A stretch of DNA of 64,000 nt from an uncultured bacterium (GCA_965541615.1 CBEUCJ010000003.1:32186-96185); one strand, 5' to 3'. Positions 15,715-61,411 are shown, counted from the stretch's first letter. Program-made: numbers and translations. Notes: generated by a model not told the origin, from the letters alone.

Positions 15715-16109
15715 TTTTTTTGAGTAGCTATGTGAATTTTTCTAACTCCTATCTTTCTACATAAATCCCAAATTTTTACCACATCCTCAAATTTTGAATA
15801 TCTATCAGCCTTTATGAATACAGAATGTTCTTTATTCTTCTTTAACAAATCTTCTAACTCTTTTAAACTTACAGGTTTACCTTTGTAATAGACAACACCT
15901 TCTTTAGTGAGAGTTAAAATGATTTGGATTTCTTTTAAAAGTTGAGAGCTGGCAGCTTTTGGAAGATTTACTGGAAAACCTAACTGGACTACAAACTGAG
16001 AAGTTAACATAAAAAAGATTAACAACTGAAGAACAATGTCTACTAAGGGAGCTATGTCTATTTGTTTTAAACCTTCTTCAAATTTTATTTTTCTTTTTAA
16101 AATTATCAT
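15711..16109 (-). CDS. ExbD/TolR family biopolymer transport protein
   Basis: QIDIAPLVDIVLQLLIFFM TM with conserved Asp. 132 aa. Confidence 0.8.
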   Translation of the reverse strand: MIILKRKIKFEEGLKQIDIAPLVDIVLQLLIFFMLTSQFVVQLGFPVNLPKAASSQLLKEIQIILTLTKEGVVYYKGKPVSLKELEDLLKKNKEHSVFIKADRYSKFEDVVKIWDLCRKIGVRKIHIATQKK

Positions 16110-41259: not shown

Positions 41260-41377
41260 TTTTGCCCAGAATTAATTCATTTTATCACAATTTTTACTCT
41301 TCTTGAATTTTTAAACTTTTATTTTTGTGGAAAAAGAGTAAAAAGAAGAACGTTAATAAGACTTTCTCTCAGAAAAA

Positions 41378-42199
41378 TCAACAAGAGAGTGTATTTATTA
41401 CTTCTTTTATAAAATCTTTATCTACTTCTAAAAACTTTATTCCTAAAAAATATTCTCCTTTATCGAGCATATTGCATCTTACAACTTGAGCTTTAGCTAT
41501 ATATTCAGAATTTTTAAAAAAGAACTTCACAGAAAGTTCTATTCCTGGAGGGAGGAATACAAAAGTTTTAACTCCCATTCCTTTCCCACTTTGGGATATG
41601 TCACATACAGTAGCTGAAATAGGAGCAGAAGAAATTAGTCTTATCCTGCTATCAGTAACCTTTATTTCTACAGGAAGATTTGCCTGTAACCTCTCTGACT
41701 CTCTACAAAAAATAAAATTAGATTTAGAAGAATAAGAATGAGTTAAGTACTCTTCCAAATTATACAACTCATCTTCTGGTCCAAAAAAATTATCTATTGC
41801 TTTTAAGATAGTTGTTGGTAAAGAAAATAGAGGAAAAACTTCTAATTCTGTTTTTACCTTTAGTTCTTTTATAAGATCAGCTTTTAAAGGATTAGCCATA
41901 GCTATAAAAAGAGTATTATCTACTTTAAAAAGTGGCACTAATAGATTTTCTCTATAAAATTCTTCAGAGAACAAACTCATTAATTCAGGATTAAGTTTGT
42001 AATCTGAAAGTCTTACTAAAGGAATCTGTGTCTGTTGGGCAAAGAAAGTATAGATATCTTCTTCAGTTAAATACCCTAACTTTATAAGTGTAGAAAATAA
42101 TGATTTTTTTATTTTTTTTTGTTCTTCTTTAGCTCTTAAAAGCTGTTCTAAAGTAAGATGAGTTTGTCTTAACAACCTTTCCTCTAAATCTTTTCTCAT
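41378..42199 (-). CDS. MshEN-like (T2SSE_N) domain fused to C-terminal PilZ domain; putative dual c-di-GMP receptor
   Basis: N-terminus DLEERLLRQTHLTLEQLLRAKEEQ-KKIKK-SLFSTLIKLGYLTEEDIYTFFAQQ (24+5+24 architecture). C-terminus RESER...DISQSGKGMG plus GIKF (PilZ RxxxR, DxSxxG). 4-nt overlap with the receiver gene. Confidence 0.55.
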   Translation of the reverse strand: MRKDLEERLLRQTHLTLEQLLRAKEEQKKIKKSLFSTLIKLGYLTEEDIYTFFAQQTQIPLVRLSDYKLNPELMSLFSEEFYRENLLVPLFKVDNTLFIAMANPLKADLIKELKVKTELEVFPLFSLPTTILKAIDNFFGPEDELYNLEEYLTHSYSSKSNFIFCRESERLQANLPVEIKVTDSRIRLISSAPISATVCDISQSGKGMGVKTFVFLPPGIELSVKFFFKNSEYIAKAQVVRCNMLDKGEYFLGIKFLEVDKDFIKEVINTLSC

Positions 42200-42753
42200 T
42201 TTTCTCCTTTTGGAGAAGAATATTTTCTCACAAATTGTGTAATTATCTCACAAATTTTTTTCTCATCTAACTTCACAGAAGTATTAGAAACAATATCAGG
42301 ATACTTTTCTTTAAGATCTCTTATCCACTCAGCTTGCTGACGAGCTATTTGTAATAAGAGTCTATTTTCTTTTAAAACTCTGTAGTAATCGAAAGCATGT
42401 TTTAAAAGAATCTTTAATTCTTCTGGATCTATAGGTTTTGTTATGTAACGCCAAATGTGAGCTTTGTTTATTGCCTCCATTGCACTGTTCAAATCTGGAT
42501 ACCCAGTAACGAGTATTCTAATGGTATCTGGATAGCGCATCTTTACTTTTAAAAGAAAATCTATTCCAGAGATTCCTGGTAAACGTTGATCACATAATAC
42601 TACCTCTACTTCTCCCTTTTCTTGTAATATCTGCCATGCTTTCTCAGCATTTTCTGCAGTAAAAATCTCTCTTTCTTCAGAAGCTAAAAGCCTTTTTAGA
42701 GAAGTGAGAATATGGGGTTCATCATCTACAATTAAAATAGTGTGTTTAGACAT
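42196..42753 (-). CDS. Response regulator receiver protein with ~60-aa C-terminal extension, no recognisable output domain
   Basis: ILIVDDEPH. LCDQRLPG phospho-Asp. LVTGY. ITKP. Confidence 0.8.
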   Translation of the reverse strand: MSKHTILIVDDEPHILTSLKRLLASEEREIFTAENAEKAWQILQEKGEVEVVLCDQRLPGISGIDFLLKVKMRYPDTIRILVTGYPDLNSAMEAINKAHIWRYITKPIDPEELKILLKHAFDYYRVLKENRLLLQIARQQAEWIRDLKEKYPDIVSNTSVKLDEKKICEIITQFVRKYSSPKGEK

Positions 42754-42771
42754 AATCTTCCTCCTCTAATA

Positions 42772-42972
42772 CTACTTTTTATGACTTAAATCTAAAAGAC
42801 TTAACGCAATACTAAAAAGCAAACACATTACTGAAAATCTCAAAATTCCAGTTGTAGTAATCCCCCAAAAGATTTTCTTTATCTCCAAAAGTCTTAATAC
42901 TACTCCTACCATAAAACTTACAAAAGCTATAGCTATAAACAAATCATCTCCTAATCTGTACATATTCTTCAT
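42772..42972 (-). CDS. Small two-TM membrane protein (paralog B)
   Basis: 66 aa. Ends ...LLFSIALSLLDLSHKK, about 45% identical to 43371..43574. SD-like ggaggtg 6 nt upstream. Confidence 0.4.
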   Translation of the reverse strand: MKNMYRLGDDLFIAIAFVSFMVGVVLRLLEIKKIFWGITTTGILRFSVMCLLFSIALSLLDLSHKK

Positions 42973-43003
42973 CTTTTACACCTCCTTTTTATTACAACAA
43001 ATC

Positions 43004-43366
43004 TCATATTTTAATAACTTTTCTTTCTTTATTTTTACTAATAAGTTCTTTAAAAAGAGAAGGGTAAACTTTAATAAATCTTATACCCATTCCTGAAGGT
43101 AAATGCTCTCCTTCATTATAATTTAATTGAGTTTCCAGTCTTCTCCAAACGACTACTCCTTGAATGTACACTTCCATTTCAGGTTCGTTTAATTTAAAAA
43201 GTAACTCCACTGGTGTGTTAGGAGGATCTGTTTTATTTGTAACCACAAAAGCACCTTGAGATGAAATATCTTTTACCTTTGCAAGTTGCCATATTCTTTT
43301 ACTTCTATATTCTACAGGAATTTTTAAAGGTATCCTTTCAAATTTTCTTTTATCTTTCATATTCAT
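43004..43366 (-). CDS. PilZ domain protein
   Basis: RKFERIP. DISSQGAFV. GMGIRF. Confidence 0.7.
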   Translation of the reverse strand: MNMKDKRKFERIPLKIPVEYRSKRIWQLAKVKDISSQGAFVVTNKTDPPNTPVELLFKLNEPEMEVYIQGVVVWRRLETQLNYNEGEHLPSGMGIRFIKVYPSLFKELISKNKERKVIKI

Positions 43367-43370
43367 TCAT

Positions 43371-43574
43371 TCATTCTTTTTTACTTAAATCCAATAAACT
43401 TAAAGAGATGCTAAAAAGTAAACATATCAAAGATAATCCTAAAAGTTCATCAGGGGTGATTTTCATAGAAGTCATTGCTTTTATTCCCCATAGTTTTGTT
43501 ATCCCCCCTATTACAAAGCTTATGAAAGCAAATATTACAAACAAATCTCCTCCTAAATTATAATTCTCTTTCAT
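43371..43574 (-). CDS. Small two-TM membrane protein (paralog A)
   Basis: 67 aa. ...LLFSISLSLLDLSKKE. SD ggaggtg upstream. Overlaps the HK stop. Confidence 0.4.
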   Translation of the reverse strand: MKENYNLGGDLFVIFAFISFVIGGITKLWGIKAMTSMKITPDELLGLSLICLLFSISLSLLDLSKKE

Positions 43575-44364
43575 AACTCACCTCCTTTTTAGGTAACACT
43601 ACTGTAAATGTAGCTCCCTTTCTATCTCTGTTTTCTACATCTATTCTTCCTTTATATTTTTTTATAATATCTCTACTTACATACAATCCTAAGCCTGTCT
43701 TTCCTTTCGTAGTAAAGAAGGGATCAAATATCTTTGGTATGATCTTTGGGTCTACTCCTCTTCCTGTATCTGAAATCTTTATATATAAATTTTCATCATC
43801 TTCAAAAGTAGAGATTTCTATTAATCCTCTACCATTCTCTATTGCCTCTGAAGCATTAAGAATTATGTTTAAAAACACTTGACCTAACTCAGTAGAATCT
43901 ACCCATATTTTGTCCTTAGCTTTATAATCTTTTATAATGTCTGCTTTATGCTTAATCTCATTCCACACTGCTCTTATTACACTATCTAAAAGCGTATTAA
44001 CATCTACTAAGGTCTTTTTTCCTCTTGCGCAGTGAGAGAAAAGGAGAAAATCTTGAACTACTCTCCTAATCCTGTAAGCTCCATTTAAACATTCTTCTAA
44101 GATTAAAGGTGCTTCTTCTAATCTTTGTCTTTGCTCAAGATAGCTTAAGAGGAGTTTCAAATTAACGATTAGATAACTTAAAGGATTATTTATCTCATGA
44201 GCTACACCTGCACATAAAGTCTTTAAAGAATTCATTTTTTCTTTATGAATATCATAAGCCTTTCTTTCTCTTTCACTTTTACTCTTTTTTTTATAGAGAA
44301 AGTAAAAGATGACAGCTATTAATGAGAAAGAAATAAAGAATATTAACACCATCTCATTTTGCAT
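43558..44364 (-). CDS. Sensor histidine kinase, minimal (one TM, no periplasmic/cytoplasmic sensor domain)
   Basis: H-box LCAGVAHEINNPL. N, G1, G2 boxes (DTGRGV, GLGL). Confidence 0.8.
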   Translation of the reverse strand: MQNEMVLIFFISFSLIAVIFYFLYKKKSKSERERKAYDIHKEKMNSLKTLCAGVAHEINNPLSYLIVNLKLLLSYLEQRQRLEEAPLILEECLNGAYRIRRVVQDFLLFSHCARGKKTLVDVNTLLDSVIRAVWNEIKHKADIIKDYKAKDKIWVDSTELGQVFLNIILNASEAIENGRGLIEISTFEDDENLYIKISDTGRGVDPKIIPKIFDPFFTTKGKTGLGLYVSRDIIKKYKGRIDVENRDRKGATFTVVLPKKEVSYEREL

Positions 44365-45619
44365 GCTTTACTACAGATATTAAATTCCATAAAGGTAAAA
44401 ATATCGCCAAAGCCATACCCATAACTACAACTCCCAAGACTGCTGTCATAATTGGCTCAATTAAAGAAGTTAAATTTCTTATCGTAGCTCTTACCTCTAA
44501 AGAATAATATTCACATAAAGAATCTAACATAGTAGGTAAAGCTCCTGTCTTTTCTCCAATTGAGATCATGTATCCTACTAATCTAGGAAATAACCTGCTA
44601 CCTAAAACACCTCCAGCTATTCCTTTTCCATCAGCTACATCTTTTTTAATATTCTCTATATCTTTAGATAAAATTACATTTCCAATCGTAGTCTTTACAA
44701 TGTTAAGAATAGTTAAAATAGGTAAACCTGCCTGATACAGGACATTTAACATAGATGCAAATCTTAACATTACTATTTTATTATAGATCTTACCAAATAT
44801 TGGCATCTTAAATTTTAAATTATCCCAGTACCATCTTCCTTTAGATGTATTTATTAAAAATCTAAATCCACTATAAAAAATAAATCCCATTACAAAAAGT
44901 ATTAAGTACCACGAAAATTTTAAAAAAACATTTCTACTCTCTCTCCATGGTCCTAATAAAAAGTTACTCACAGCTATCATTATTCTGGTAGGTAGAGGTA
45001 AACTCACTTTAAAACCTTGATAGATTCTAACAAAAGGAGGAACCACAAATACACTGAGCACAAATAAAGCTACAAAAAGAGCTATTATTACCATAATAGG
45101 ATACCTTAAAGCTGATTTTATTCCCATTTTAGTCTCTCTTTCTTCTTCTAAAACTTGAGCTAATCTTAACAAAACTTTATCTAAGACACCACCTGCTTCA
45201 CCTGCAACGACACTATTTACATACAATTCACTAAACACATGAGGATGCTTTGACATAGCTTCTGATAGTTTGTGTCCTTCTTCTATATCATGAATAATTT
45301 GATTAAGAGCTTCTTTTAAAACTTCATCTTCTGCTTGTTCAGTTAAAACTTTTAAACCTTCTATTATAGGAACAGCAGCTTTGACTATCGTAGCAAATTG
45401 GCGAGTAAAGACTATGAGAGCTTGGGAAGAGACTTTACGCATCCTTTTTTTAAAAAACCTCTCCCAGATAGAAGCAATATCTCTTTTGAATCCTATACTT
45501 ATTGGTGAATATCCTAACTTAGCAAGGTGGGTTGAGACTTCCAATTCATTTGCTGCTTCTAATTCTCCTTTAACGATCTTGCCTTGAGAGTCTATAGCTC
45601 TATAAATATACTTTCCCAT
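44354..45619 (-). CDS. GspF/PilC/MshG-family platform protein (second copy)
   Basis: 421 aa. Duplicated T2SSF domains, 3 TM segments. Confidence 0.85.
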   Translation of the reverse strand: MGKYIYRAIDSQGKIVKGELEAANELEVSTHLAKLGYSPISIGFKRDIASIWERFFKKRMRKVSSQALIVFTRQFATIVKAAVPIIEGLKVLTEQAEDEVLKEALNQIIHDIEEGHKLSEAMSKHPHVFSELYVNSVVAGEAGGVLDKVLLRLAQVLEEERETKMGIKSALRYPIMVIIALFVALFVLSVFVVPPFVRIYQGFKVSLPLPTRIMIAVSNFLLGPWRESRNVFLKFSWYLILFVMGFIFYSGFRFLINTSKGRWYWDNLKFKMPIFGKIYNKIVMLRFASMLNVLYQAGLPILTILNIVKTTIGNVILSKDIENIKKDVADGKGIAGGVLGSRLFPRLVGYMISIGEKTGALPTMLDSLCEYYSLEVRATIRNLTSLIEPIMTAVLGVVVMGMALAIFLPLWNLISVVKHAK

Positions 45620-45620
45620 A

Positions 45621-46463
45621 TTAACTGAGATTGAATTCTTTTATTACTGAATTTATAAATTGAGCATCTATTTTTGAGATCTTTTTAGCAAATCCTGAAA
45701 GCAGAACTAAATCACAAAGAGTGTTTATTTTTCTAGGGATGCCTCCTGTATGGTTAAATATTACTTTAATAGCTTCAGAATCAAAAACTGGTTCTAAAGA
45801 ACCTTGAGCTGGATTCTCAAGTCTGGCTACATTTATTCTATGTTCAATGTATTTGGCTACATCTTCTTCTGTCAAAGGTCCTAAGTGGCATCTTATAGGT
45901 ATCCTTTGAACAAAAGGTTTTATCATTTCTACTTTATCTTTGAGTTCGGGTTGACCTAATATAAGGAGGGTTAAGAGGAATCTATTTTCATTTTGAAAAT
46001 TCAAGATTAATCTCAAAGTTTCAAATATTCTCATATTCTCTATAGTATGAGCTTCATCTATAATTACCACGTTCTCCTTTCCTTCACGAATATTATCTAT
46101 GAGGATATTATATAGTTTTTCTAATAGAGGGTCAATTAAGAGCTCTGTTTTCTTTTCTGGTAAAGGTTGAGGACTTAAAAGTCTTACTATTGATCTTATA
46201 AGTTCAGAGGGCTCAGAAAACAAAGGATGGTTTATGTAAGCAGTACAGAATTTTTGAGGACCTAACTCTTTCAAAATTACTCTTGCTAAAAGTGTTTTTC
46301 CACACCCAAAAACTCCAGTAAGCATACCGCATCCCAAATTTTGAGCTATAACATAAGTAAGTTTCATTAAAGCATCTTCGTGTTGGGGAGAAAGATATAA
46401 AAATCTGGGATCTGGTGTATTTTGAAATGGCTTTTCTTTCAAACCCCAGTAACTTTCATACAT
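45621..46463 (-). CDS. ExeA/GspA/MshM-like AAA ATPase
   Basis: N-terminus MYESYWGLKEKPFQNTPDPRFLYLSPQHEDAL...GVFGCGKTLL parallels the ExeA/MshM N-terminus (FGL...PF...PDPRFLY...GxGKT). Confidence 0.65.
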   Translation of the reverse strand: MYESYWGLKEKPFQNTPDPRFLYLSPQHEDALMKLTYVIAQNLGCGMLTGVFGCGKTLLARVILKELGPQKFCTAYINHPLFSEPSELIRSIVRLLSPQPLPEKKTELLIDPLLEKLYNILIDNIREGKENVVIIDEAHTIENMRIFETLRLILNFQNENRFLLTLLILGQPELKDKVEMIKPFVQRIPIRCHLGPLTEEDVAKYIEHRINVARLENPAQGSLEPVFDSEAIKVIFNHTGGIPRKINTLCDLVLLSGFAKKISKIDAQFINSVIKEFNLS

Positions 46464-48266
46464 CTATTTTTTACTTAACCAGCGCGTGATACGAGTTTTA
46501 TACTCTTCTAACGCCTGTGTATCTATTTTGATCTCTGTAGGTTTGGTGACTTTTGTCGTTTCTTTTTGAACAGCTATGTAAGGTTTTACTTCTGTTTCTA
46601 CAGGTTTTATCTCTACCTGCTCTTCACAGACTCTGGCTACCTCTTCAAAAGTAGTCAATCCTTTTAAAACTTTTTCTCTTCCATCTTCCCACAATAACCT
46701 CATACCTTTTTCCTGAGCTTTCTTTCTCAAAACCACAGTGGAAGCTCCTTGGTTAATTAGTTCTCTGATCTCATCATCCACTACCATCAATTCAAAAATA
46801 CCTGTTCTCCCTTTGTAACCTGTTCCTTTACATTCAGCACATCCTTTACCTCTATATACAGTTATGTTACCTCTATCTTCTAACTTCCATTTTTTAAGGA
46901 CTGCTTTTGAGGGTGTGTAAGGTTCTTTACATTTAGGACAGATTAATCTCACTAATCTCTGAGCCATTACCCCTATCAAAGAAGCTGCAACTAAAAATTG
47001 TTCTACTCCCATGTCCACTAATCTGGCTACAGCTGATGGTGCGTCATTAGTATGCAAAGTAGAAAAGACCAAGTGTCCAGTTAAAGCTGCCTGCACTGCC
47101 ATACGAGCAGTTTCTAAATCTCTTATTTCACCTACCATTATTACATCTGGGTCTTGACGCAGAATAGCTCTTAAACCTGTAGCAAAAGTTATACCTGCTT
47201 TGGGATTTACTTGAACTTGTCTAATTAAACCTAATCTGTATTCTACAGGATCTTCCAATGTAATTATATTTCTTTCAGGAGTATTTATTCTCATTAAAGC
47301 TGAATATAAAGTAGTGGTCTTTCCACTTCCTGTAGGACCTGTTGAAAGTATTATTCCGTATGGCTTTTTTATCAACTCTTCAAATCTCTTCAAATCCTCA
47401 TAAGTAGTAAACCCTAATCTTTCTAAACCTATCGTCACAGAAGCAGTATCTAACAGTCTTAAGACAACATTTTCTCCATGGATTGTAGGAAGGGTTGAGA
47501 CACGAAAATCTATTAATTTATCATCTACTATTGCCTGAAAATGTCCATCTTGGGGAATTCTGGATTCAGCTATATCCATACCTGCTAAAACTTTTATTCT
47601 GGAAATAATAGCTGCCTCCCACTCTTTTGGAGGAGAAGGAATCTCATGCAAAATTCCATCTATACGAAACCTGATCCTTGTAGTTTTCTCTTCTGGTTCA
47701 ATATGAATATCTGAAGCTCTATCTCTTACTGCCTGGGCTATAATTAAATCTACAATCCTTACAATAGATGTCGTCTCACTTAAAGGTTTTCCTTCCTCTT
47801 TTGCTACTTCTAATTCTGCAAACAGATTTTCTTTCTTTTTTTGATAAATTCTATTCAAAGCATCTTCAATTTCTTGTGCAGAAGAGAAATAAACTTCGAT
47901 TGGATAGTTAGTAAAAAGTTGTATCTGATCTATTAATGAAATATCTTGAGGATCTTGCATTGCTACATGTAAAATGCCATCCTTTATAAAAAGAGGAACT
48001 GACTTTGTAGACCGAGCTAATTCTTCTGGATATATTTTTAATAGATCTTCTTCTACTTCTAAATTATCTAAATTTTTGTATTCTACTCCTAACTTTTCAG
48101 CTACAGCTTTATAGAGAACTTCTTTTTTTAATAAATGCATATCTATAATTACTCTTTCTAAAGGGCGTTTTAATTTTTTTGTTTCATCTATTGCTTTTTC
48201 TAACTCCTCAGGTGTTAATAAATTTTTATTTAAAAGTAATTCTCTTAATTCTTCTTCACTAATCAT
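46464..48266 (-). CDS. GspE/PilB/MshE-family assembly ATPase (second copy; N-domain motifs degenerate)
   Basis: GPTGSGKTT. His box STLHTND. CPKC...CAEC. N-domain LRELLLNKNLLTPEELEKAIDET keeps the hydrophobic pattern but lacks the R/G/Q positions of the MshEN consensus. Confidence 0.9.
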   Translation of the reverse strand: MISEEELRELLLNKNLLTPEELEKAIDETKKLKRPLERVIIDMHLLKKEVLYKAVAEKLGVEYKNLDNLEVEEDLLKIYPEELARSTKSVPLFIKDGILHVAMQDPQDISLIDQIQLFTNYPIEVYFSSAQEIEDALNRIYQKKKENLFAELEVAKEEGKPLSETTSIVRIVDLIIAQAVRDRASDIHIEPEEKTTRIRFRIDGILHEIPSPPKEWEAAIISRIKVLAGMDIAESRIPQDGHFQAIVDDKLIDFRVSTLPTIHGENVVLRLLDTASVTIGLERLGFTTYEDLKRFEELIKKPYGIILSTGPTGSGKTTTLYSALMRINTPERNIITLEDPVEYRLGLIRQVQVNPKAGITFATGLRAILRQDPDVIMVGEIRDLETARMAVQAALTGHLVFSTLHTNDAPSAVARLVDMGVEQFLVAASLIGVMAQRLVRLICPKCKEPYTPSKAVLKKWKLEDRGNITVYRGKGCAECKGTGYKGRTGIFELMVVDDEIRELINQGASTVVLRKKAQEKGMRLLWEDGREKVLKGLTTFEEVARVCEEQVEIKPVETEVKPYIAVQKETTKVTKPTEIKIDTQALEEYKTRITRWLSKK

Positions 48267-48900
48267 TTCTCAACATTTTTTTAATCTCTTTTATCCATTC
48301 TTCAATCTCTTTCTTTTCTTTATGAGAAGCAAATTTCAAATACTTCTGATAATAATTAATAGCCCTCCTCTTATCATTAAGATAACTCTCATAGAGTACT
48401 CCTAAATTATAATATGCATCTTTATCAGAAGGATTTAATTGAATAACTTTTTCAAAGGAATGAGCTGCCTGAATGTAATTTGACTTTTTTAGATAAATTA
48501 CTCCTAAATTATAATAAATATCTGGATTTTGAGGATACTTTTTTAAAATCTTTTTGTAAATGCTTAATGCCTTATCATACTCTTCTTTCTGAAAAGCATG
48601 TTCTGCTTCTTCTAAAATATTCTTATCTTTTTTCTCTTCCTTTTTTTTCTCTATAAAAATTTTAGGACTTTCTTTTCCTATCTTTTGCTCAGCAGAAAAA
48701 GATGTTAATCTGTCTAAAATTTCTTCTGCTTTTTTAAAAAACTCTTCTGCAGACTTATAATCTCCTTTTAACATTAGTTCCTTACCTTTTAAATAGTAGA
48801 TTTGGGCATTATTTATCTGCTCATCACAAAAACTTATGTAAATGGGAAAGAATAAAAATAGTAAACAGATTTTAAAGAGTAATTTACTTTGTTTTTTCAT
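48259..48900 (-). CDS. Secreted TPR protein (MshN-like position)
   Basis: Signal peptide. 4-5 TPR units (YYNLGVIY..., YYNLGVLY...). Confidence 0.55.
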   Translation of the reverse strand: MKKQSKLLFKICLLFLFFPIYISFCDEQINNAQIYYLKGKELMLKGDYKSAEEFFKKAEEILDRLTSFSAEQKIGKESPKIFIEKKKEEKKDKNILEEAEHAFQKEEYDKALSIYKKILKKYPQNPDIYYNLGVIYLKKSNYIQAAHSFEKVIQLNPSDKDAYYNLGVLYESYLNDKRRAINYYQKYLKFASHKEKKEIEEWIKEIKKMLRND

Positions 48901-50458
48901 CTAAAACAACCTCTTCTTTTTTTTGCAAATTTATTGACTCAATCTTAACATCTACTTTTTTTTGAGGAATCTTTTTTAAATACTCTGTCAATTTAGATTG
49001 AGAGTTAGTAATCCTTTCTATTTCATCCCTTAAATTTCTTAACAATTCTTCTCTTTCAGCTAATCTTTTAGATAACTTAGCGTTCGCTAATTTAACTTTT
49101 ACTATATTCTCTCTAAGAAGAGCCAACTCTTTTATTCGATCGTTTAACTCTGTCTTTAAATTTTTGAGTTCAGTTTCTTTTTTTTCTAAATCTTCTTGTA
49201 AAGTTAAAATCTTATCTGCACGTTTAGCTAACTCTAAATGAATATTTTCTATTCTTTCTTGAGCTAAATGGTACTTTTCTTCTAACATTTTATATTTTTC
49301 AGAAAGTTGTAAAATTTCTTCTTTTAAAGACTTTATTTGAAATTCTTTATTTTTCAACTTTATCTTTAACATACCTGAAATTTTTTTAAACTTAGTCTTT
49401 TGTTGAGATAAAATACTATTATCTTCTTTTAACTCCTTTACTAGTTGTGTTAAATCTTCTTTTTCTTTCTTTAAATTTTCTAAATCTTTATAAAGAGAAG
49501 ATATCTTCTCATCTAATAATTTTAACTGCTCATCTTTTTTTGAAAGCTCTTCTTCCAACTTCTCTTTAGTTGCACTTAAACTTTTTTGAGTTTCAAGTAA
49601 AGAAGATATTTTTTCTTCTAACTCTAATTTTTCTTTCTTTGCTCTATCTAATTTTTTTAATAGTTCTTCTTTTTCTTTCAAAACTAAAGACAATTTTTGA
49701 ATATGTTCTTCTAACTGTTTTTCTAAATTTTTCTTAGTTAAAAGCACTTTTTCTTTTTCTCTTCCTAAAACTTCAACTTTATCTTTTAAATCTTTAACTT
49801 TCTTTTCAAGCTTATCAACGCAATAAGTTAACTCTTTATTTTTAGAAGAAAGAGATTTCACTTTTTTAGAGTATTCAGAAAGTGTTCTTTTTTGTTTTTC
49901 ATAAGAAGCTTTTAATCTTTCTAATTCTCTTATTTTTTTCTTCAAATTCTTTATCTCATACTTTAACTTTTTACTCTCTTTTTTCTTCTCTTCATATTTA
50001 TTGCGGTAAAGAGCATCTTTTTTCATCAATTTAGATAAGTTAAAATCTAAAGAACTTAATTCTTTGTATATAGAATTCAAAAGAGAATTTATCTTTCTTT
50101 TATCTGATAAAGCAAAATCTCTTTTATCTATTAAAAAAGCTATCTCTTTTAATCTATCTTCTATTTGAATAAGAAACTGATTTATTTGAGGAGACCGGGG
50201 TCCAAACTGTCTTTTTAACTTCTTTTTTTTAAGTTCTTCTATCTTCTTTTTTAATTCTGTATTTTCAGCCTTTAGTTTTTTAAAGCTTGCTAAAAATTTA
50301 TTAAAAACTCTTTCTTTAATTTCAGAAGAAAGTCTATATTCTTGTAAAGATAAATTGAGGATTTTTTGTTGATAAAGAAGAACTATTAAAAAGAAACTTA
50401 AAAATAAAATCATAACTATTGCCCTCATTCCTTTACTTTCTAAAAAACCTTTCATCAT
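48884..50458 (-). CDS. Membrane-anchored 524-aa coiled-coil protein (K/E-rich)
   Basis: N-terminal TM IVMILFLSFFLIVLLY, then an almost continuous heptad-like K/E/L repeat (SMC-like). Confidence 0.5.
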   Translation of the reverse strand: MMKGFLESKGMRAIVMILFLSFFLIVLLYQQKILNLSLQEYRLSSEIKERVFNKFLASFKKLKAENTELKKKIEELKKKKLKRQFGPRSPQINQFLIQIEDRLKEIAFLIDKRDFALSDKRKINSLLNSIYKELSSLDFNLSKLMKKDALYRNKYEEKKKESKKLKYEIKNLKKKIRELERLKASYEKQKRTLSEYSKKVKSLSSKNKELTYCVDKLEKKVKDLKDKVEVLGREKEKVLLTKKNLEKQLEEHIQKLSLVLKEKEELLKKLDRAKKEKLELEEKISSLLETQKSLSATKEKLEEELSKKDEQLKLLDEKISSLYKDLENLKKEKEDLTQLVKELKEDNSILSQQKTKFKKISGMLKIKLKNKEFQIKSLKEEILQLSEKYKMLEEKYHLAQERIENIHLELAKRADKILTLQEDLEKKETELKNLKTELNDRIKELALLRENIVKVKLANAKLSKRLAEREELLRNLRDEIERITNSQSKLTEYLKKIPQKKVDVKIESINLQKKEEVVLDEKTK

Positions 50459-50507
50459 AATTATTTTATCTTAATCTTTTTTTAAATTCAATTTTCACAA
50501 AAGCTAT

Positions 50508-51962
50508 TTATTCTAATTTAATCTCTCTCAAATTGAGTTTAAACTTTCTGGGAGGGTAAGTTATAATGTTGCTTTGATAAGCTAAAAGCCTTCCTTCTTT
50601 TTCTTGATTTATTACTCTCGCTGTAACAAAAATTAACAATTCAGATTTCTCATTAGGATCTACACTCTTATGGGTAAAGAAAAATCCCAATAAAGGTAAG
50701 TCTCCTAAAATAGGAACTTTATGAACGGATTTAGTCTTCTTTGTTTCTATTAATCCTCCAATAACAATCGTTTGACCATCTTTTATTACAACTTCTGTTT
50801 CAGCATAGCGTTCACTCATAACAGGATAATCAAAGCCTAACGCTCCAAAAGTTACTTTATCTACATAATTTGTAACTTTGGGTTTTAACTTTAGTTTTAT
50901 ATAATAATCATCGCCTATCTTGCTTATCTGTGGAGTTACAGTTAAACTCACTCCTTCTATTTTCTCCTCGAAACCAATGATTTGATATTGTCCTGTTTCA
51001 GAATTATATTCAAATTGAGGGATTGGTCTTGTTTTGCCTATATAAATTTCTGCTTCTTTATTGTTCATCGTTACTACTCGAGGAGATGAGATTAGTTTAG
51101 AATCTGTTTTAGCCATAAGAAAATTTAGCACACTTCTAAATTCATTGAAACTTAACGTTCCAAACAAAAACTTTCCTCTAACAATTTCATCAACGCTACT
51201 TGTAGTTACTCTTTCCGTATCATCCCCTTTTACATAAGGAAAACTGTAAGGATATCCTGAAGGAAACGCATCTCCTGTAGCTGGAGGAAATATATTCTTC
51301 ATCCACTTTTTTTCTCCCTTAGGTTCAAAGGGTAAAGTCGTTGGTCTAGCTGCTCCACTAACACTCATGGTTACATTCCAATCGATTCCTAATTTCTCTA
51401 TTGTTCCTAAAGAAGTTTCAATGAATCTTGCTTCAATTAAAACTTGAGGGGTAAGGTTATCTAATTTAGGAATTATCTTTCCTATTTTCTCAAGTACTTG
51501 TGGCACATCTGTAACGATTAGCGAATTTGAACGAACATCTGCTTCAATTGAACCTTGAGAAGAAAGCATCTTTTTCAAAACTTCTTTCAATTTAGAAGCA
51601 TCTGCATTATTTAATTTAAACACTCTTGTATAACTTCCTTCTTTTTCAGCCTCTTCAGGGGTAGTAATTTTGTAAATGTTGCCTTTTTTTGTATAAACAT
51701 AACCATTAGTAGTCACTATTGCATCTAAAGCTTGTTCAACAGTCACATTTTGAAGCTGAACAGTAACGAGTCCTTTTACAGATTGAGAAAAGATAATATT
51801 TAAATTGTATTGCTTGGCTATCTGTCTTAAAACATCTTTAATATCTACTTCTCTAAACTCCAAATACTTTATAATTTGAGATGGTTCTTCAGAATACAAA
51901 AAATTAAAACACCAAAATAATAAGATAAAAAGTATACACTTTTTTCCAATTAATTTTTTCAC
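50508..51962 (-). CDS. Secretin (second copy, MshL/PilQ-like)
   Basis: STN-like FREVDIKDVLRQIAKQYNLNIIF. C-terminal ...LLIFVTARVI. Signal peptide. Confidence 0.85.
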   Translation of the reverse strand: MKKLIGKKCILFILLFWCFNFLYSEEPSQIIKYLEFREVDIKDVLRQIAKQYNLNIIFSQSVKGLVTVQLQNVTVEQALDAIVTTNGYVYTKKGNIYKITTPEEAEKEGSYTRVFKLNNADASKLKEVLKKMLSSQGSIEADVRSNSLIVTDVPQVLEKIGKIIPKLDNLTPQVLIEARFIETSLGTIEKLGIDWNVTMSVSGAARPTTLPFEPKGEKKWMKNIFPPATGDAFPSGYPYSFPYVKGDDTERVTTSSVDEIVRGKFLFGTLSFNEFRSVLNFLMAKTDSKLISSPRVVTMNNKEAEIYIGKTRPIPQFEYNSETGQYQIIGFEEKIEGVSLTVTPQISKIGDDYYIKLKLKPKVTNYVDKVTFGALGFDYPVMSERYAETEVVIKDGQTIVIGGLIETKKTKSVHKVPILGDLPLLGFFFTHKSVDPNEKSELLIFVTARVINQEKEGRLLAYQSNIITYPPRKFKLNLREIKLE

Positions 51963-51997
51963 ATTACTTATTATACTAAAAATCTGTTTTTTTAAAA

Positions 51998-52471
51998 CTA
52001 TTTTAACTCCTCTTCTGGTAAGACCAAATAAAACTTTTCACTTCCCTTTTCTAAAAGTACTTTCTTTTTTGTTATCTCTATTACTCTAAATCCTTCTATG
52101 ACATCACCTACAGTAACTATTGAATCATTAATAAAAGCATATCCTTTTTTATCTTTTCCTATAGAGATTCCTTTCAAGACTAAATTTACAGCTCTATGGA
52201 TTTCTCTATCAGAGACAGGATAAAAAGGATCTCTTCCCCAATCTAACTCTGCTCTTTTTTTCTGAAGAGAAAGCATTTTTGAAGAAATCTCTCTTTCAGA
52301 AATCGATCTTCTTTTTATAGACAAAGAAATTTTAGGTCTTACTTTAACTGCTGCAGGTTTGGGAGGGATAGTTTTCCTTCTCCTTTTGGGTTTTAAATTA
52401 TTTATTAATAAAACTACAAAGACTACAACCAAAATAGCTGTAATTATATATTCAGCAGTCTTTTTATTCAT
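51998..52471 (-). CDS. PilP/MshK-like protein
   Basis: N-terminal TM, basic linker, C-terminal GISIGKDKKGYAFINDSIVTVGDVIEGFRVIEI beta-domain. Confidence 0.45.
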   Translation of the reverse strand: MNKKTAEYIITAILVVVFVVLLINNLKPKRRRKTIPPKPAAVKVRPKISLSIKRRSISEREISSKMLSLQKKRAELDWGRDPFYPVSDREIHRAVNLVLKGISIGKDKKGYAFINDSIVTVGDVIEGFRVIEITKKKVLLEKGSEKFYLVLPEEELK

Positions 52472-53092
52472 TTATATCTTCCATACTTTATAACTACTAA
52501 TCAGTAAAGTAGCTATTATCTTGTTTTCTGGAGTCTGTTTACTCTTAGATCTTTTTGTTTTTCTCTCTCCTGTAGAGAATTCTTCTACTTCAGGCTTTTC
52601 TATAGAAAGAGTCTCTATCGTTAAAAGGATTGGTAATTCTTCTAAAGCTTTAAGATATTCTCCTAAAACTTTATAAGGAGCTTTAAGTACTACTTCTATA
52701 TAAAATTTACTTACACCTTGAGGTAATTCTTTTTCTTCAAAAGGAACTTCTGAAACAGGTTTTATAGAAATAATCTCTATGTTAAGTTCACTACTTTTTT
52801 TTGTTAGTTCTCTGATTATCTTGGGGAGTTCCCTGTCAGAAGCTGATTTACTTTTAAAATCCTTCATTTTTTTGTGAAGCTCTTCTATCTTTTTCTTAGG
52901 GTTGGGGACTTCTTTTACCAAGGATTCCATTTGTTCCAACTCTTTTTGAAGTTTTCCTAATTCTTCCTTTTCTTTATTCAACTTTTTAATAGCTGGTCTT
53001 CCTAAGAAAAGATGTGCAAGAATAAGTATAAAAAGGTAGATACAAATATCTATAAATACTCTTACTATTCTGTTTTCTATCCTTCTTATCAT
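52472..53092 (-). CDS. PilO/MshJ-like protein
   Basis: N-terminal TM, then coiled-coil (EKEELGKLQKELEQMESL), then a small domain. Confidence 0.4.
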   Translation of the reverse strand: MIRRIENRIVRVFIDICIYLFILILAHLFLGRPAIKKLNKEKEELGKLQKELEQMESLVKEVPNPKKKIEELHKKMKDFKSKSASDRELPKIIRELTKKSSELNIEIISIKPVSEVPFEEKELPQGVSKFYIEVVLKAPYKVLGEYLKALEELPILLTIETLSIEKPEVEEFSTGERKTKRSKSKQTPENKIIATLLISSYKVWKI

Positions 53093-53093
53093 T

Positions 53094-54851
53094 TCAATAC
53101 ACTATTTCACAGATTATTTCAAAATTTGCTTTAGGAATAGGAGAATACATATCTCTTTCACTCGAGATAAGACGCACATTTGTAAAAAAAGGAGATTCAT
53201 CAAGATTTAAAGTATACTGAGAGATAGCTAAATCCAAATTAGTATATTGAGTGGCGACTTCTCCAATTATAGTTAACTCTTTTAAACCTTTACGAGAGAC
53301 TATCTCTAATCTATGCAGAGTTATCTCTTTAGGAGTAATATTACTCAATTCTTTTAGAATTGCCCACCATAGAGGTTGTCTTCCAACAGCTCTTTTTAAT
53401 AAACTCTCTCTTTCTGCAAGAGTTTTTTTAAGTAAAAGATATTCTTTTATTTCTTTTACTAAAGGTGTCAAAGACCTTATTTGATTTTCCATTCTTTTAG
53501 CTACACCTTTATAAAGTAAAGCTCTACCATAAGAAAATGCATAAAATCCTAAAAGGATAGTAAAGATTAAAGGAAATGTTATCCTTGCTAAAAACATTAA
53601 AAATAAAGCTTTCTGTTCTAATTTTTCTTTAGGAGGAACCAGATTCAATCTACCGCCTTTATCTATACAAACTCCAAAAACAGAGGCTAAGTGAGGAGCT
53701 GCTTCTTCCATTATAAGTTCTTGTCTAAATACACCTACATCAAACCATCCTTTAGCTATTTTTAAAGGATTCAATTTTTCTATTTTCTTTATGGGTAGGT
53801 TACTTAAATTAGCAGAAAAAAATTCTTTTATATTTTTCATGCGAGAACCTCCACCTGTGAGATAAAAAACATCTAAGCTTTCGACTTTGTAGGTTCTAAA
53901 ATAAAAAGCCATAGTACGTGAAACTTCAGTAATCATCCTTTCTAATAAAGGCCTTAAAACACCTGCTATCTGACTTCCTTTTATTACTCCAAAATCTGTA
54001 TAGAAATCTGTCCCTGCTTCTTCCAAAGGAATCCCACATTCTCTTTTAAAGACCTCTGCATCTTCAATAGTAACATCTTTATTTAAATCTGATAAAACTC
54101 TCATTATCGCATGAGTAAATTGATCAGCTCCAATAGGTATCTGATGATTAAATTGCAAAAGTCTGCCTTTATAAAAATTCAGAGAACTTTCTTTAGCTCC
54201 TATATCTAAAACTGCTATGTATTGAGTTTCTTTTTCAAAACTACCTACCAGATTTCCCAAAGCATCAGGAATAACGTTTATTACTACTGGCCTTAAATTA
54301 AATTTTTTTAAAAAATTTAAATATTCTTCCAAAACAAGATTATCTACTGCAATACAGGTAACCTGAGCAAAATTTCCTTTTTCAGTTTCAAACTTGTGCG
54401 TTATAAAATAGTCAAAAGTTATATTTTTAAAATTTACTTGAAAAGGTAACCTTTTTTTAAGCTCTATACTTACAGCTCCTCTCAAGTCCTTTTCTGAGAC
54501 AAAAGGTAAAATAAATGAAAAGATAAAAATTCCCCTTCCTTGAACAACTAACCTTCCTAGATGAGATTTTATTCTTGTCTGAAAAAGGAATTCTTTAATA
54601 AATCTTTCTATAAATTCTCTTCTTTTATTAAAATCATCTTTTATATTAAAAGGAATGCCTCTTACTCTATAATCACTTATTAAATATCCTTTTTGAACTT
54701 TTTGAAATTGAGCTATCTTTACATAACTATATCCAATATCTATTCCTACAGATGTACGTGTAGATAAGAAGAAATTTTTAAATGAGACTAATAATTGCTT
54801 TAAGTTAACTCTTGTCTTTGCCTCTAAAGAAGGTTTTGAAGAAGGTTTCAT
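53094..54851 (-). CDS. PilM-PilN fusion (MshI-like), 585 aa
   Basis: VGIDIGYSYVKIAQF actin-like start. Internal TM ALFLMFLARITFPLIFTILLGFYAF, then a PilN-like tail. Confidence 0.6.
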   Translation of the reverse strand: MKPSSKPSLEAKTRVNLKQLLVSFKNFFLSTRTSVGIDIGYSYVKIAQFQKVQKGYLISDYRVRGIPFNIKDDFNKRREFIERFIKEFLFQTRIKSHLGRLVVQGRGIFIFSFILPFVSEKDLRGAVSIELKKRLPFQVNFKNITFDYFITHKFETEKGNFAQVTCIAVDNLVLEEYLNFLKKFNLRPVVINVIPDALGNLVGSFEKETQYIAVLDIGAKESSLNFYKGRLLQFNHQIPIGADQFTHAIMRVLSDLNKDVTIEDAEVFKRECGIPLEEAGTDFYTDFGVIKGSQIAGVLRPLLERMITEVSRTMAFYFRTYKVESLDVFYLTGGGSRMKNIKEFFSANLSNLPIKKIEKLNPLKIAKGWFDVGVFRQELIMEEAAPHLASVFGVCIDKGGRLNLVPPKEKLEQKALFLMFLARITFPLIFTILLGFYAFSYGRALLYKGVAKRMENQIRSLTPLVKEIKEYLLLKKTLAERESLLKRAVGRQPLWWAILKELSNITPKEITLHRLEIVSRKGLKELTIIGEVATQYTNLDLAISQYTLNLDESPFFTNVRLISSERDMYSPIPKANFEIICEIVY

Positions 54852-54861: not shown

Positions 54862-55209
54862 TCAATATTCTTCTATTTCTTTTAAATATTGTAATATAAA
54901 TAATAATATTTTTAACTCTTTTTCAACATCTAAATCCCTGAATTCTACCCCTGTAAAATAACCTGTGTTATCTGCTTTCTTTTGCCAAATGACCCTTCCT
55001 ACACATTCTATTTGAGTCTTCTCTTTATCTGGCAAATAAAATTTTAAAAGTAACAAAGTGCCTACTTTTAATTCATCTTTAGTTAAAAAGCACAATCCAT
55101 TTCTACTTATATTTTTAGTTCTACTTTTGAATACAGAATTTAAAGGAAGAATTTGATATTCTACTTCAGTACAAATATCTACTCTTAAAAACTTTCTATG
55201 GTCTTGCAT
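54862..55209 (-). CDS. PilZ domain protein
   Basis: RKFLRVDI. NISRNGLCF. GVEF. Confidence 0.65.
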   Translation of the reverse strand: MQDHRKFLRVDICTEVEYQILPLNSVFKSRTKNISRNGLCFLTKDELKVGTLLLLKFYLPDKEKTQIECVGRVIWQKKADNTGYFTGVEFRDLDVEKELKILLFILQYLKEIEEY

Positions 55210-58250: not shown

Positions 58251-58664
58251 TCAGAAAATTTTTAAAAAATCTATGTCTTTTAAATACTTTAAAATCTCTT
58301 TTTTATCTACTTTAAAAAAATGTGTCTTACATTTGCAATCTGAAGAACCAAATTTTTCTTTTACTACCTTTAATCTTAAATCTTTTAGAAATTTTCTAGA
58401 GATCTCACATTCAGTATTTTTGCTTACCCAAACGTTCTCTATCTCAAATTCTTTTAAAGAAGTTATAAAATCTATATGCCAAAATTTTCTTTTATTTTTT
58501 AAAAAATGCCTTTGTACTCTCTTAAATAATTTATTTAAAGGTGCAGAACCTACATACACATAGTATCCTTTTTTAAAATTTATTTTACCTAATTTTCCCA
58601 CACTGAGTTTTATATCTCTTTTGCATCTTATTAATAGTAAATAAGAATTCTTTTTATCTTTCAT
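58251..58664 (-). CDS. GIY-YIG-like nuclease superfamily protein (DUF123-like)
   Basis: YLLLIR...GYYVYVGSA...RVQRH matches the DUF123/GIY-YIG pattern as I recall it. Confidence 0.45.
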   Translation of the reverse strand: MKDKKNSYLLLIRCKRDIKLSVGKLGKINFKKGYYVYVGSAPLNKLFKRVQRHFLKNKRKFWHIDFITSLKEFEIENVWVSKNTECEISRKFLKDLRLKVVKEKFGSSDCKCKTHFFKVDKKEILKYLKDIDFLKIF

Positions 58665-58671
58665 TTCAATC

Positions 58672-58743
58672 TGGAGCTGGGGGGACTTGAACCCCCGACC
58701 TCTTCTTTGCGAAAGAAGCGCTCTCCCCCTGAGCTACAGCCCC
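58672..58743 (-). tRNA. tRNA-Ala (anticodon CGC)
   Basis: Revcomp: GGGGCTGTAGCTCAGGGGGAGAGCGCTTCTTTCGCAAAGAAGAGGTCGGGGGTTCAAGTCCCCCCAGCTCCA. Cloverleaf with 7-bp acceptor including the G3:U70 Ala identity pair, anticodon loop TTCGCAA, TTCAAGT T-loop, discriminator A. CCA is not encoded. Confidence 0.85.
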
Positions 58744-58750
58744 TTCTAAT

Positions 58751-59971
58751 TTAAAGATAAATAGTATCTGAAGAGTTAAACAAAGATAAAAATAAGAGCA
58801 TGTAGTCTTGTATGTGTCTTGTTATAAGAAAATTATTTTTTACATGTCTTTTCCCATTTTTACCTAACCTCTTTGCATATTCAGGTTCATGGATTAATTG
58901 TTTTATCCAGTAAGCAGTCCCTTCTATAGTGTAAGTTAGTATTCCTGAGTATTTGTGAGCGATCTGTAAAGGAATACCTCCTACAGCTGAAGCTATTACG
59001 GGTTTTTCTTTCCATAAAGCTTCTGTAACTGTCAAACCAAAGCCTTCCTTTAAAGATTTCTGCAAAATTATAGTTGAGGCTCTTTGTAAAGCATTTATCT
59101 CTAAATGACTGTTAGGAGGTAAAAATAATACAAAAATATCTTTATCAGAAGCTGCTTCTGACATTACATCCTCTAAAACTTTCTTTCCTTCTGGATCGTC
59201 AGCTGCTCCTCCACCAGCTAAAACTAATTGACAATCTATATATTTTTTAACTAATCTATAAGCTTTTATTACTCCTATTGGGTCTTTTAAATAATCGAAC
59301 CTTGAAATCTGAGTGATTATTGGTTTTTCTTTATCTATACCAAATCTTCTTAAAACAGAGTCTATAAAATCTGGACTTAACTCTTTATTCTTATCACTGA
59401 GAGGATCTATTGAAGGAGAAATTAATACTTGTCTGATAGAAAGCTTTCTTGCAAAGCGTGGAGCTGAAAACACAGATGCATCATATTTTTCTATAAAATT
59501 TTTTAAAAATAACCATATATCTTTTTTAGGAGTAGAAAAATCTACATGGCACCTCCATATCCATTTATTTTTAAACTTCCTTTTCTTTCTCACCAAAGCT
59601 ATGGGTTGAGGATCATGGATAAAAACGATATCCTGAGTTTTGCTAAGGAGCTTTTCATTCTTTTCATTTATCTCTATAAAGTATTCTAATTCTTCTTTGG
59701 TCAAAACTACATCTACTCCATGTAGACCATTATGGATTTTTTTAGTAATCTCAAAGAACTTTTTATCACCCCAAATTACATCCCATCTTACTTTTAAACC
59801 CAAATCTTGCATTAAGGGGACTATAGCTGAAAGCATTTCAGCTACTCCCCCACCATAACTCGTAGAGTTAATGTTTTGGATGCTAACATGTTTTAATTTC
59901 TCAGCTAACATATATAATTCATCTATAACTTCATCTCCTACTATTTTACGATACTCATCTATTTTTCTCAT
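58751..59971 (-). CDS. treT: GT4 trehalose glycosyltransferring synthase-like protein
   Basis: NSTSYGGGVAEMLSAIVPLMQDLGLKVRWDVI parallels the archaeal/Thermotogae TreT N-terminus (NSTSFGGGVAEIL...). 406 aa. Confidence 0.6.
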   Translation of the reverse strand: MRKIDEYRKIVGDEVIDELYMLAEKLKHVSIQNINSTSYGGGVAEMLSAIVPLMQDLGLKVRWDVIWGDKKFFEITKKIHNGLHGVDVVLTKEELEYFIEINEKNEKLLSKTQDIVFIHDPQPIALVRKKRKFKNKWIWRCHVDFSTPKKDIWLFLKNFIEKYDASVFSAPRFARKLSIRQVLISPSIDPLSDKNKELSPDFIDSVLRRFGIDKEKPIITQISRFDYLKDPIGVIKAYRLVKKYIDCQLVLAGGGAADDPEGKKVLEDVMSEAASDKDIFVLFLPPNSHLEINALQRASTIILQKSLKEGFGLTVTEALWKEKPVIASAVGGIPLQIAHKYSGILTYTIEGTAYWIKQLIHEPEYAKRLGKNGKRHVKNNFLITRHIQDYMLLFLSLFNSSDTIYL

Positions 59972-60612: not shown

Positions 60613-60618
60613 CTTTCT

Positions 60619-61404: not shown

Positions 61405-61411
61405 TTATTTT

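Follow-up and report, generated by a model that had tools for sequence, protein, structure and literature searches.

A conserved gene cassette beside an MSHA-like type IV pilus cluster of Omnitrophota that likely links cyclic di-GMP and phosphorylation to the pilus motor

Control of type IV pili by cyclic di-GMP (c-di-GMP), PilZ proteins and two-component systems is well known, with MshE, PilB-PilZ-FimX, PdeK/PdeR and Pil-Chp as described examples. In Xanthomonas citri, the N1 domain of the assembly ATPase PilB lacks the c-di-GMP-binding motif, binds PilZ through its ND1 part and is proposed to bind PilM on another face (PMC8389850; review PMC11656802). In the GSPII-A domain of Thermus PilF, Ser at position 1 plus Ala at position 3 of motif II is enough to abolish binding (PMC12002112). 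HapZ of Pseudomonas aeruginosa is a single-domain PilZ adaptor that acts on the kinase SagS. The field has yet to settle how the flexible N1 of pilus ATPases communicates with the stator and with cofactors (review PMC11656802). Here we describe six minus-strand genes (positions 41378-44364, hereafter the cassette) in a 64,000-nucleotide (nt) stretch of DNA from an uncultured bacterium (GCA_965541615.1 CBEUCJ010000003.1:32186-96185, hereafter the window).

The cassette is conserved, and an MSHA-like type IV pilus operon carries it at its 3' end. Among the sampled loci and the named members of its protein families it is seen only in Omnitrophota. By analogy with the systems above, we anticipate that it controls the pilus motor post-translationally by integrating c-di-GMP and phosphorylation, a reading to which we give a rough probability of 55%. 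An earlier reading of this DNA, made without database searches (the sequence-only reading), had already proposed the six genes; all are present as open reading frames (ORFs) at the positions below, and Pfam bears out each of the domain assignments made then.

43558-44364, minus strand: histidine kinase (HK), 268 residues; Pfam HisKA 8e-9, HATPase_c 3e-24
43371-43574, minus strand: small protein with two transmembrane (TM) segments, copy a (sTM-a), 67 residues; no Pfam or NCBIfam family
43004-43366, minus strand: stand-alone PilZ protein, 120 residues; Pfam PilZ 1.6e-12
42772-42972, minus strand: small two-TM protein, copy b (sTM-b), 66 residues; no Pfam or NCBIfam family
42196-42753, minus strand: response regulator (RR), 185 residues; Pfam Response_reg 5e-24
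41378-42199, minus strand: fusion of an MshEN fold with a PilZ domain, 273 residues; Pfam MshEN 7.5e-17 (residues 58-144), PilZ 4e-9 (residues 166-266)

We sampled 19 loci: 4 from context look-ups, 12 genome loci found with an 11-sequence subset of the fusion alignment (11 titled Omnitrophota or Omnitrophica and one an unclassified metagenome-assembled genome, MAG), and 3 seeded independently from the RR family. All were annotated using the window proteins as queries. The gene order ATPase-(AAA_22)-GspF-HK-(sTM)-PilZ-RR-(sTM)-fusion is kept in 17 of the 19, in fusion-seeded and RR-seeded loci, a strongly positive outcome for the conservation beside pilus genes on which the sequence-only reading depended. 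One exception (L013) is a truncated contig. In the other (L016), the most diverged fusion gene (34% identity) directly follows gspF, and HK, PilZ and RR are all absent. HK, stand-alone PilZ and RR are thus present together or absent together and form a unit, whereas no cassette gene is tied more closely to the pilus genes than the fusion. The GspF gene precedes HK in all complete loci, and every locus whose record names a phylum belongs to Omnitrophota. The fusion family consists of 48 clusters of 264-286 residues (one a 155-residue fragment) with 33-98% identity, and its named members are all Omnitrophota MAGs.

The AlphaFold2 (AF2) model of the fusion has a predicted local distance difference test score (pLDDT) of 90.9 and a predicted template modelling score (pTM) of 0.63. 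It comprises a four-helix ND0 (residues 2-57), an alpha/beta ND1 (60-140), a low-confidence linker (145-170), a PilZ barrel and a C-terminal helix. In Foldseek searches the N-terminal part matches MshE, PilF GSPII-A (the second-best fold match) and the N domains of X. citri PilB and XpsE (PDB entries including 5HTL, 9G1W, 7LKM and 2D27), and the C-terminal part matches PilZ domains of the BcsA, Alg44 and PA4608 types; no PDB chain among the Foldseek matches covers both halves. The residues expected of a c-di-GMP-binding PilZ domain are kept across the family (R166 and R170 in 44/44 members, D/N200 in 44/44, S202 in 43/44 and G205 in 40/44). RxxxR (166-170) falls within the flexible linker between the two domains of the model, as it does in YcgR/PlzD-type proteins, so c-di-GMP should change the arrangement of ND1 and PilZ.

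The MshEN half, which had also been taken for a c-di-GMP site, is not a credible one. As defined by Wang et al. (2016), the MshEN motif is a tandem of two 24-residue units, RLGxx(L/V/I)(L/V/I)xxG(L/V/I)(L/V/I)xxxxLxxxLxxQ, which we applied both strictly and in the relaxed form that those authors used. The Pfam MshEN match of the fusion (PF05157, 61.5 bits) spans residues 58-144, that is ND1 only, and the ligand-binding helices lie outside it. At the motif positions these N-terminal helices read DLEERLLRQTHL...Q and SLFSTLIKLGYL...Q. In motif I, position 1 (consensus Arg) is Asp, Asn or Glu and position 3 (consensus Gly) is Glu; in motif II, position 1 is Ser (42/44) and position 3 is Trp, Phe or Tyr (44/44). 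The key Arg and Gly are replaced in all 44 family members, none of which passes the relaxed motif, and the NCBIfam c-di-GMP_motif model NF053729 gives the fusion 33.6 bits at a cutoff of 38.

Five further features upstream of the cassette, and one ATPase gene elsewhere in the window, bear on where c-di-GMP could act:

44354-45619, minus strand: platform protein (GspF/PilC type) of the MSHA-like cluster, whose gene the cassette follows directly; Pfam T2SSF 6e-55, NCBIfam GspF 1e-96
45621-46463, minus strand: AAA_22 (ExeA/MshM-like) ATPase, found in most syntenic loci; Pfam AAA_22 2.6e-19
46464-48266, minus strand: PilB/MshE-type assembly ATPase of the MSHA-like cluster; Pfam T2SSE 1e-142, MshEN 4e-18
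48259-54851, minus strand: remainder of the MSHA-like cluster by Pfam (TPR, coiled-coil, secretin, small PilP/GspB-like, PilO and PilM-PilN fusion proteins), kept upstream of the cassette in relatives
54862-55209, minus strand: PilZ protein at the head of the operon, 115 residues; Pfam PilZ 7.5e-15
8747-10450, minus strand: second ATPase of the pilus or type II secretion system (T2SS) type, outside the cassette; Pfam T2SSE 1.5e-139, two canonical MshEN motifs

The upstream genes run in the order PilZ, PilM-N fusion, PilO, small PilP/GspB-like protein, secretin, coiled-coil protein, TPR protein, PilB/MshE-type ATPase, AAA_22 and GspF, which is a complete MSHA-like pilus cluster. Three PilZ domains of the window score above the Pfam gathering cutoff for PilZ (PF07238, 22.5 bits): the stand-alone protein at 43004-43366 (48.1 bits), the fusion (37.1 bits) and the operon-head protein at 54862-55209 (55.6 bits), the last already recognised in the sequence-only reading. 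Their RxxxR and (D/N)xSxxG motifs read RKFER/DISSQG, RESER/DISQSG and RKFLR/NISRNG, respectively. The tandem motif reported for the ATPase at 8747-10450 is likewise real, with both units, KIGEILIRKGLISEKNLKEALEIQ and RLGEILIKKGIIKEEDLARALSEQ, passing the strict pattern. The window thus holds four credible predicted c-di-GMP sites, three in PilZ domains and one in an ATPase MshEN domain, and not the five or more counted earlier, which included the MshEN part of the fusion. Lineage-specific in its distribution, the operon-head PilZ has homologs in only 3 clusters.

The assembly ATPase next to the cassette (46464-48266) fails the relaxed MshEN motif, as do its orthologs in 13 of the 13 loci tested. 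In the window and in all 13, KRPL[ED] replaces RLG at the motif II position, and most read KKLKRPLE, which suggests a different conserved function of this loop and not simple decay. The other ATPase type in relatives keeps the MshEN motif (5/5). Judged by these motifs, the motor of the MSHA-like system beside the cassette appears to have lost direct c-di-GMP sensing.

No enzyme of c-di-GMP turnover is encoded nearby, in agreement with the sequence-only reading. A six-frame regular-expression search of the window for GG[DE]EF, EAL-type and HD-GYP signatures found none, and Pfam searches of every window ORF of at least about 130 residues other than pilin-like ORFs returned no GGDEF, EAL or HD family. 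At the Rfam gathering threshold the window contains no c-di-GMP riboswitch or other RNA element, one tRNA-Ala being the only match. Four relatives have a REC-GGDEF-like gene of about 318 residues on the opposite strand, 1-6 kb downstream of the fusion:

L002:14666-15622: REC-GGDEF-like gene
L003:11835-12794: REC-GGDEF-like gene
L018:16044-17003: REC-GGDEF-like gene
L023:11662-12618: REC-GGDEF-like gene

We considered this gene as the missing cyclase and rejected it. Its signature motif is degenerate (GGDDF, GADDF, GSDDF or QDDDF), the Pfam GGDEF match in L002, L003 and L023 (38-49 bits) covers profile positions 5-112 of 161 only, and the REC acceptor residue is either D or E. The C-terminus carries a conserved KERRxSYPF. 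These features make a degenerate receptor more likely than a cyclase, and the protein may be a pseudo-enzyme or a receptor. With no cyclase in the window, and with the REC-GGDEF protein of relatives probably inactive, the source of c-di-GMP must be elsewhere in the genome.

The HK consists of a single TM helix (approximately residues 4-24 by hydropathy), a linker of about 25 residues, and then DHp and CA domains only. No other domain was matched, and hence no sensor domain, extracytoplasmic or cytoplasmic. The description of the kinase as sensor-less therefore stands, and the same architecture occurs in 15 of 15 family members; the TM helix itself is poorly conserved. The H-box (AHEINNPL) and the N, G1, F and G2 boxes (NIILNASEA, DTGRGV, FDPFFTTK and GTGLGL) can be read directly, and the alignment of the family shows them conserved. 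Of the NCBIfam models, T2SS_HK matches best, with 183 bits, far under its 450-bit cutoff. In the stand-alone PilZ, the motifs RKFER and DISSQG are conserved in 14 homologs from other loci, and a PDB search found no sequence relative of this protein.

The RR is predicted to be phosphorylatable. As in the sequence-only reading, it ends in a tail in place of a known output domain, and this tail is family-specific. Residues D10, D11, D55, T83 and K106 of the receiver are invariant in 42 homologs, as are N130, L133, P152, F174 and Y178 of the tail. In the AF2 model (pLDDT 85), alpha5 of the receiver continues as a 40-residue helix (110-150), a coiled-coil extension, that is followed by a weaker C-terminal helix (164-179). 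Foldseek matches are receivers only (of HupR, NtrC1, DctD and HD-domain RR types), and the two-helix tail has no fold match. The family comprises 77 clusters of 185-206 residues, is bounded by a drop in E-value from 4e-44 to 5e-21, and all its source-named members are Omnitrophota or Omnitrophica. The NCBIfam NosR model matches the RR over model positions 1-156 of 422 only. This match suggested a truncated REC-HD-GYP phosphodiesterase of the RpfG/NosR type, which we rejected, since an HD domain is missing from the RR and from all 89 homologs and family members are consistently 185-206 residues in length.

The dedicated read-out layer that the sequence-only reading had envisaged, tied to the MSHA-like pilus genes, is supported, as are the synteny (17 of 19 loci) and the lack of a cyclase or phosphodiesterase nearby. 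The proposed coupling to both extension and retraction is not supported to the same degree, as the analysis linked no retraction ATPase to the cassette. In the reading that we favour, c-di-GMP made elsewhere in the genome would bind the PilZ domains. Ligand bound at the linker and barrel of the fusion would re-orient PilZ against ND1, in the manner of YcgR/PlzD, and this could alter how the N1 mimic engages a PilM-type stator or the ATPase ring and so promote or block motor docking. The stand-alone PilZ could be a c-di-GMP-dependent adaptor on the HK-RR pair, similar to HapZ on SagS, and its co-inheritance with HK and RR suggests that it feeds the sensor-less kinase or gates phosphotransfer to the RR. 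The phosphorylated RR would presumably dimerise via its long alpha5, and its tail may bind a pilus or cassette component. The small TM proteins would be optional accessories of the envelope machinery and not the core sensor.

A more specific version, which we offer tentatively as one possibility, is that the fusion is a pilus regulator of a new kind, a free-standing N1 docking mimic, gated by c-di-GMP through its PilZ domain, that competes with the motor or recruits it at the PilM stator like a clutch, and that the stand-alone PilZ turns c-di-GMP levels into phosphorylation of the tail-bearing receiver by giving the sensor-less kinase its input.

Several points weigh against post-translational motor control by the cassette as set out here. 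All of the mechanistic steps rest on analogy. The N domain of the fusion is nearer to the canonical type than to the adjacent ATPase (85 bits against canonical-type N domains, 54 bits against the adjacent ATPase group; the ATPase groups cross-score 77-82 bits). We therefore rejected a recent duplication of the N domain of the adjacent ATPase, and the machine that the fusion addresses may not be the adjacent one. Also, several relatives have a further secretin/ATPase cluster immediately downstream of the fusion. In six relatives (L004, L008, L012, L015, L016 and L017) this second cluster starts 1-4 kb downstream and has two secretin-like genes, followed in five of the six by a 556-558-residue ATPase whose MshEN motif is canonical (the L017 sequence stops short of it). 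In the window, arg, dap/lys, pan, fol and uvrA genes instead take up some 27 kb after the fusion. Sequence identity did not establish orthology of this second cluster with the window cluster at 3.7-14.2 kb: the L004 ATPase is 45% identical to the window ATPase at 8747, and the downstream ATPases are 47-50% identical to the window ATPase at 46464. Further, the target of HapZ is the REC domain of a hybrid kinase, and the HK here has no REC domain. The aromatic residues conserved where the motif has degenerated (Trp, Phe or Tyr, 44/44) could serve a non-canonical ligand site. Finally, regulation could be by activation or by inhibition.

Three other explanations were weighed. The fusion might be a chaperone or assembly factor for the N1 domain of the ATPase, forming mixed rings or stabilising it, and not a competitive mimic, with c-di-GMP only tuning the affinity. 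The X. citri PilZ protein folds and solubilises the PilB N1 domain, and the fusion gene is never lost among the cassette members, L016 retaining gspF and the fusion alone. However, the fusion has its own N1 in cis, so its PilZ domain is likely occupied intramolecularly, and any hetero-oligomer would be hypothetical. We regard this explanation as unlikely.

The fusion might, alternatively, bind c-di-GMP at both its MshEN and PilZ halves while the tiny membrane proteins feed the sensor-less kinase, the role for which the sequence-only reading had put them forward. Modulation of kinases by small membrane proteins is an accepted idea (MgrB with PhoQ). Pfam does call MshEN in the fusion, and the model predicts its N-terminal four-helix bundle confidently. 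The small TM genes sit within the cassette with a 17-nt overlap at the HK stop, and their sequences are conserved. The two copies are indeed paralogs (51% identical, each with two hydrophobic segments), and a profile search found 42 family members among 1.84 billion protein representatives, all stand-alone and 39-75 residues long. Against this explanation, the MshEN match covers ND1 only, the motif fails throughout the family and below the NCBIfam cutoff, and equivalent substitutions kill binding in PilF GSPII-A. Nor do the small TM genes follow the kinase: one is present in 8 of 17 complete cassettes and absent from the other 9, where the HK is equally sensor-less. Its position also shifts, being HK-sTM-PilZ in most cassettes and RR-sTM-fusion in L018. 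A second copy, in the order PilZ-sTM-RR, occurs only in the window and in its closest relative (L001, 70% identity), and sTM-b is a recent duplicate. A distant family member, P0156 (L020:2418-6204 and L021), lies in a cluster without kinase, PilZ or RR, where the order is PadR, a stand-alone 145-residue MshEN protein with one relaxed c-di-GMP motif, secretin, AAA_22, a 167-residue GspB-like protein and sTM. Being absent or mobile, found with kinases that are sensor-less regardless, and present in a kinase-free neighbourhood, the small TM proteins cannot be the universal input of the kinase; they track envelope machinery, not the kinase. Together with the poor conservation of the HK TM helix, this makes the explanation improbable.

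It is similarly doubtful that HK and RR are an ordinary two-component system for pilus gene expression with the PilZ proteins as independent passengers, since, common as two-component control of pilin expression is (PilS-PilR), and even though the Joint Genome Institute (JGI) labels several RR homologs 'NtrC family' and the receiver is structurally closest to those of HupR and NtrC1, no AAA+ or DNA-binding domain occurs in any of the 77 RR clusters, the tail is two helices without a fold match, and gain or loss affects HK, PilZ and RR jointly.

Gene packing agrees with the favoured reading's placement of the cassette in the pilus operon. The gspF/HK, HK/sTM-a and RR/fusion junctions overlap by 11, 17 and 4 nt, and the other cassette junctions are gaps of 4, 31 and 18 nt. 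Two of the stop/start overlaps claimed in the sequence-only reading, 44364/44354 and 42199/42196, are thus correct (11 and 4 nt), and the third, 45619/45621, is a 1-nt spacer. A consensus scan found no convincing minus-strand terminator within the cassette. With this tight packing and no internal terminator, co-transcription of the cassette with gspF, as proposed, is very likely. A promoter-like site at 55247-55219, ahead of the operon-head PilZ gene, matches the consensus at 11 of 12 positions. This site, TTTACA-17-TATAAT, ends 9 nt before the PilZ ATG, so that a transcript from it would have little or no leader, unless translation in truth begins at a codon further downstream. On the other side, a 118-nt gap separates the fusion from the arg operon, which begins with argC. 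The gap (41260-41377) has no terminator-like hairpin and contains, by eye, TTCAAG-17-TGaTAAAAT, which resembles an extended -10. The arg operon may thus be served by a promoter of its own as well as by read-through.

Some other features of the window and its relatives can be recorded here. Every called gene in the window (1-64000) but one (3048-3521) is on the minus strand, GC skew is negative in all 2-kb bins, and the GC content is roughly 29%, so that the entire window seems to belong to one replichore with co-oriented genes. The coiled-coil protein of the MSHA-like cluster (48884-50458) belongs to no family. Its homologs in L001-L019 always lie between the secretin and TPR genes, range from about 300 to 935 residues and diverge far faster than their neighbours (E-values 2e-117 to 5e-6). 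Adjoining the first pilus cluster, 14708-19137 encodes a DUF2582 winged-helix protein, a small zinc-ribbon protein, an unassigned 174-residue ORF, an ExbD/ExbB pair and an 804-residue TPR protein. In the region 58251-62881, a DUF123 (GIY-YIG-like) gene and a trehalose cluster (TreT-like synthase, DUF5752, trehalose-phosphatase and OtsA-type GT20) flank a tRNA-Ala(CGC) (58672-58743). In L019, a chemotaxis-type set (CheY-like REC, CheC, CheA and CheX/CheC; 14361-18106) lies about 4 kb downstream of the cassette, a hint that in some lineages the pilus region receives an additional signal.

Omnitrophota are mostly uncultivated, have very small cells and are thought to depend on surface or host contact, and the cassette provides a marker for a pilus system in this phylum. 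In open-access papers and preprints, including a 2024 review of PilB cofactors, we found no description of an N1-PilZ (MshEN/GSPII-PilZ) fusion, of an HK-PilZ-RR triad in a pilus operon, of the restriction of either to Omnitrophota, or of any pilus c-di-GMP module in this phylum. A natural fusion of N1 to a PilZ domain that is predicted to be ligand-competent would be a separate line of evolutionary evidence for the generality of the N1:PilZ contact observed in Xanthomonas. It would also indicate how the signal can be re-routed via accessory proteins in a lineage whose pilus ATPase no longer binds c-di-GMP directly. The fusion is compact and soluble-looking, and the effect of c-di-GMP on its N1:PilZ contact is directly measurable.

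Among described systems, the X. citri PilB-PilZ-FimX complex (PDB 7LKM/7LKN/7LKO; PMC8389850) resembles the cassette in pairing a motif-less N1 (ND0 plus ND1) with a PilZ fold and in bringing c-di-GMP to the pilus motor via accessory proteins and not via the ATPase. The N-terminal part of the fusion matches 7LKM/7LKO in sequence as well as fold. Unlike in X. citri, N1 and PilZ are here one polypeptide that is separate from the ATPase. The X. citri PilZ is of type II, lacks c-di-GMP binding and acts in trans on PilB, whereas the PilZ domains here are canonical by their motifs. The X. citri receptor is the GGDEF-EAL protein FimX, and the window has no FimX-like EAL or GGDEF protein. By analogy, the fusion would be a covalent version of the X. 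citri N1:PilZ pair, detached from the ATPase and carrying a PilZ domain with predicted ligand competence.

The MSHA operon of Vibrio cholerae with its ATPase MshE (PDB 5HTL; PMC5013675) shares the N-domain fold and the gene set, that is PilM/N-like, PilO, secretin, TPR, AAA_22 MshM-like, MshE-like ATPase and MshG/GspF-like proteins. In contrast to MshE, the operon ATPase (of the window and 13/13 relatives) and the fusion lack the two RLGxxLLxxGLL...Q motifs, and the gene order differs, the AAA_22 gene here following that of the ATPase. The GSPII-A domain of Thermus thermophilus PilF (PDB 9G1W; PMC12002112), similar to the fusion in its fold and itself non-binding, is part of the ATPase polypeptide, and the fusion carries more severe replacements (motif II: Ser and Trp/Phe/Tyr; motif I: Asp/Asn/Glu and Glu).

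For the HK-PilZ-RR unit, HapZ-SagS is the closest parallel: a stand-alone canonical PilZ is genetically coupled to a kinase and receiver pair, and c-di-GMP could gate phosphotransfer. HapZ binds the REC domain of a hybrid kinase, whereas the target here would have to be the separate RR or the DHp/CA core of the HK. In structures of VCA0042 and YcgR, ligand binding closes the two domains. The fusion has YcgR/PlzD-type fold matches (5Y6F and 3KYF in Foldseek) and, like these proteins, has its RxxxR in the flexible linker that joins an N-terminal domain for partner binding to the PilZ barrel. Its N domain has the ATPase N1 (GSPII) fold and not that of PilZN/YcgR-N, and its target would be the pilus in place of the flagellar motor.

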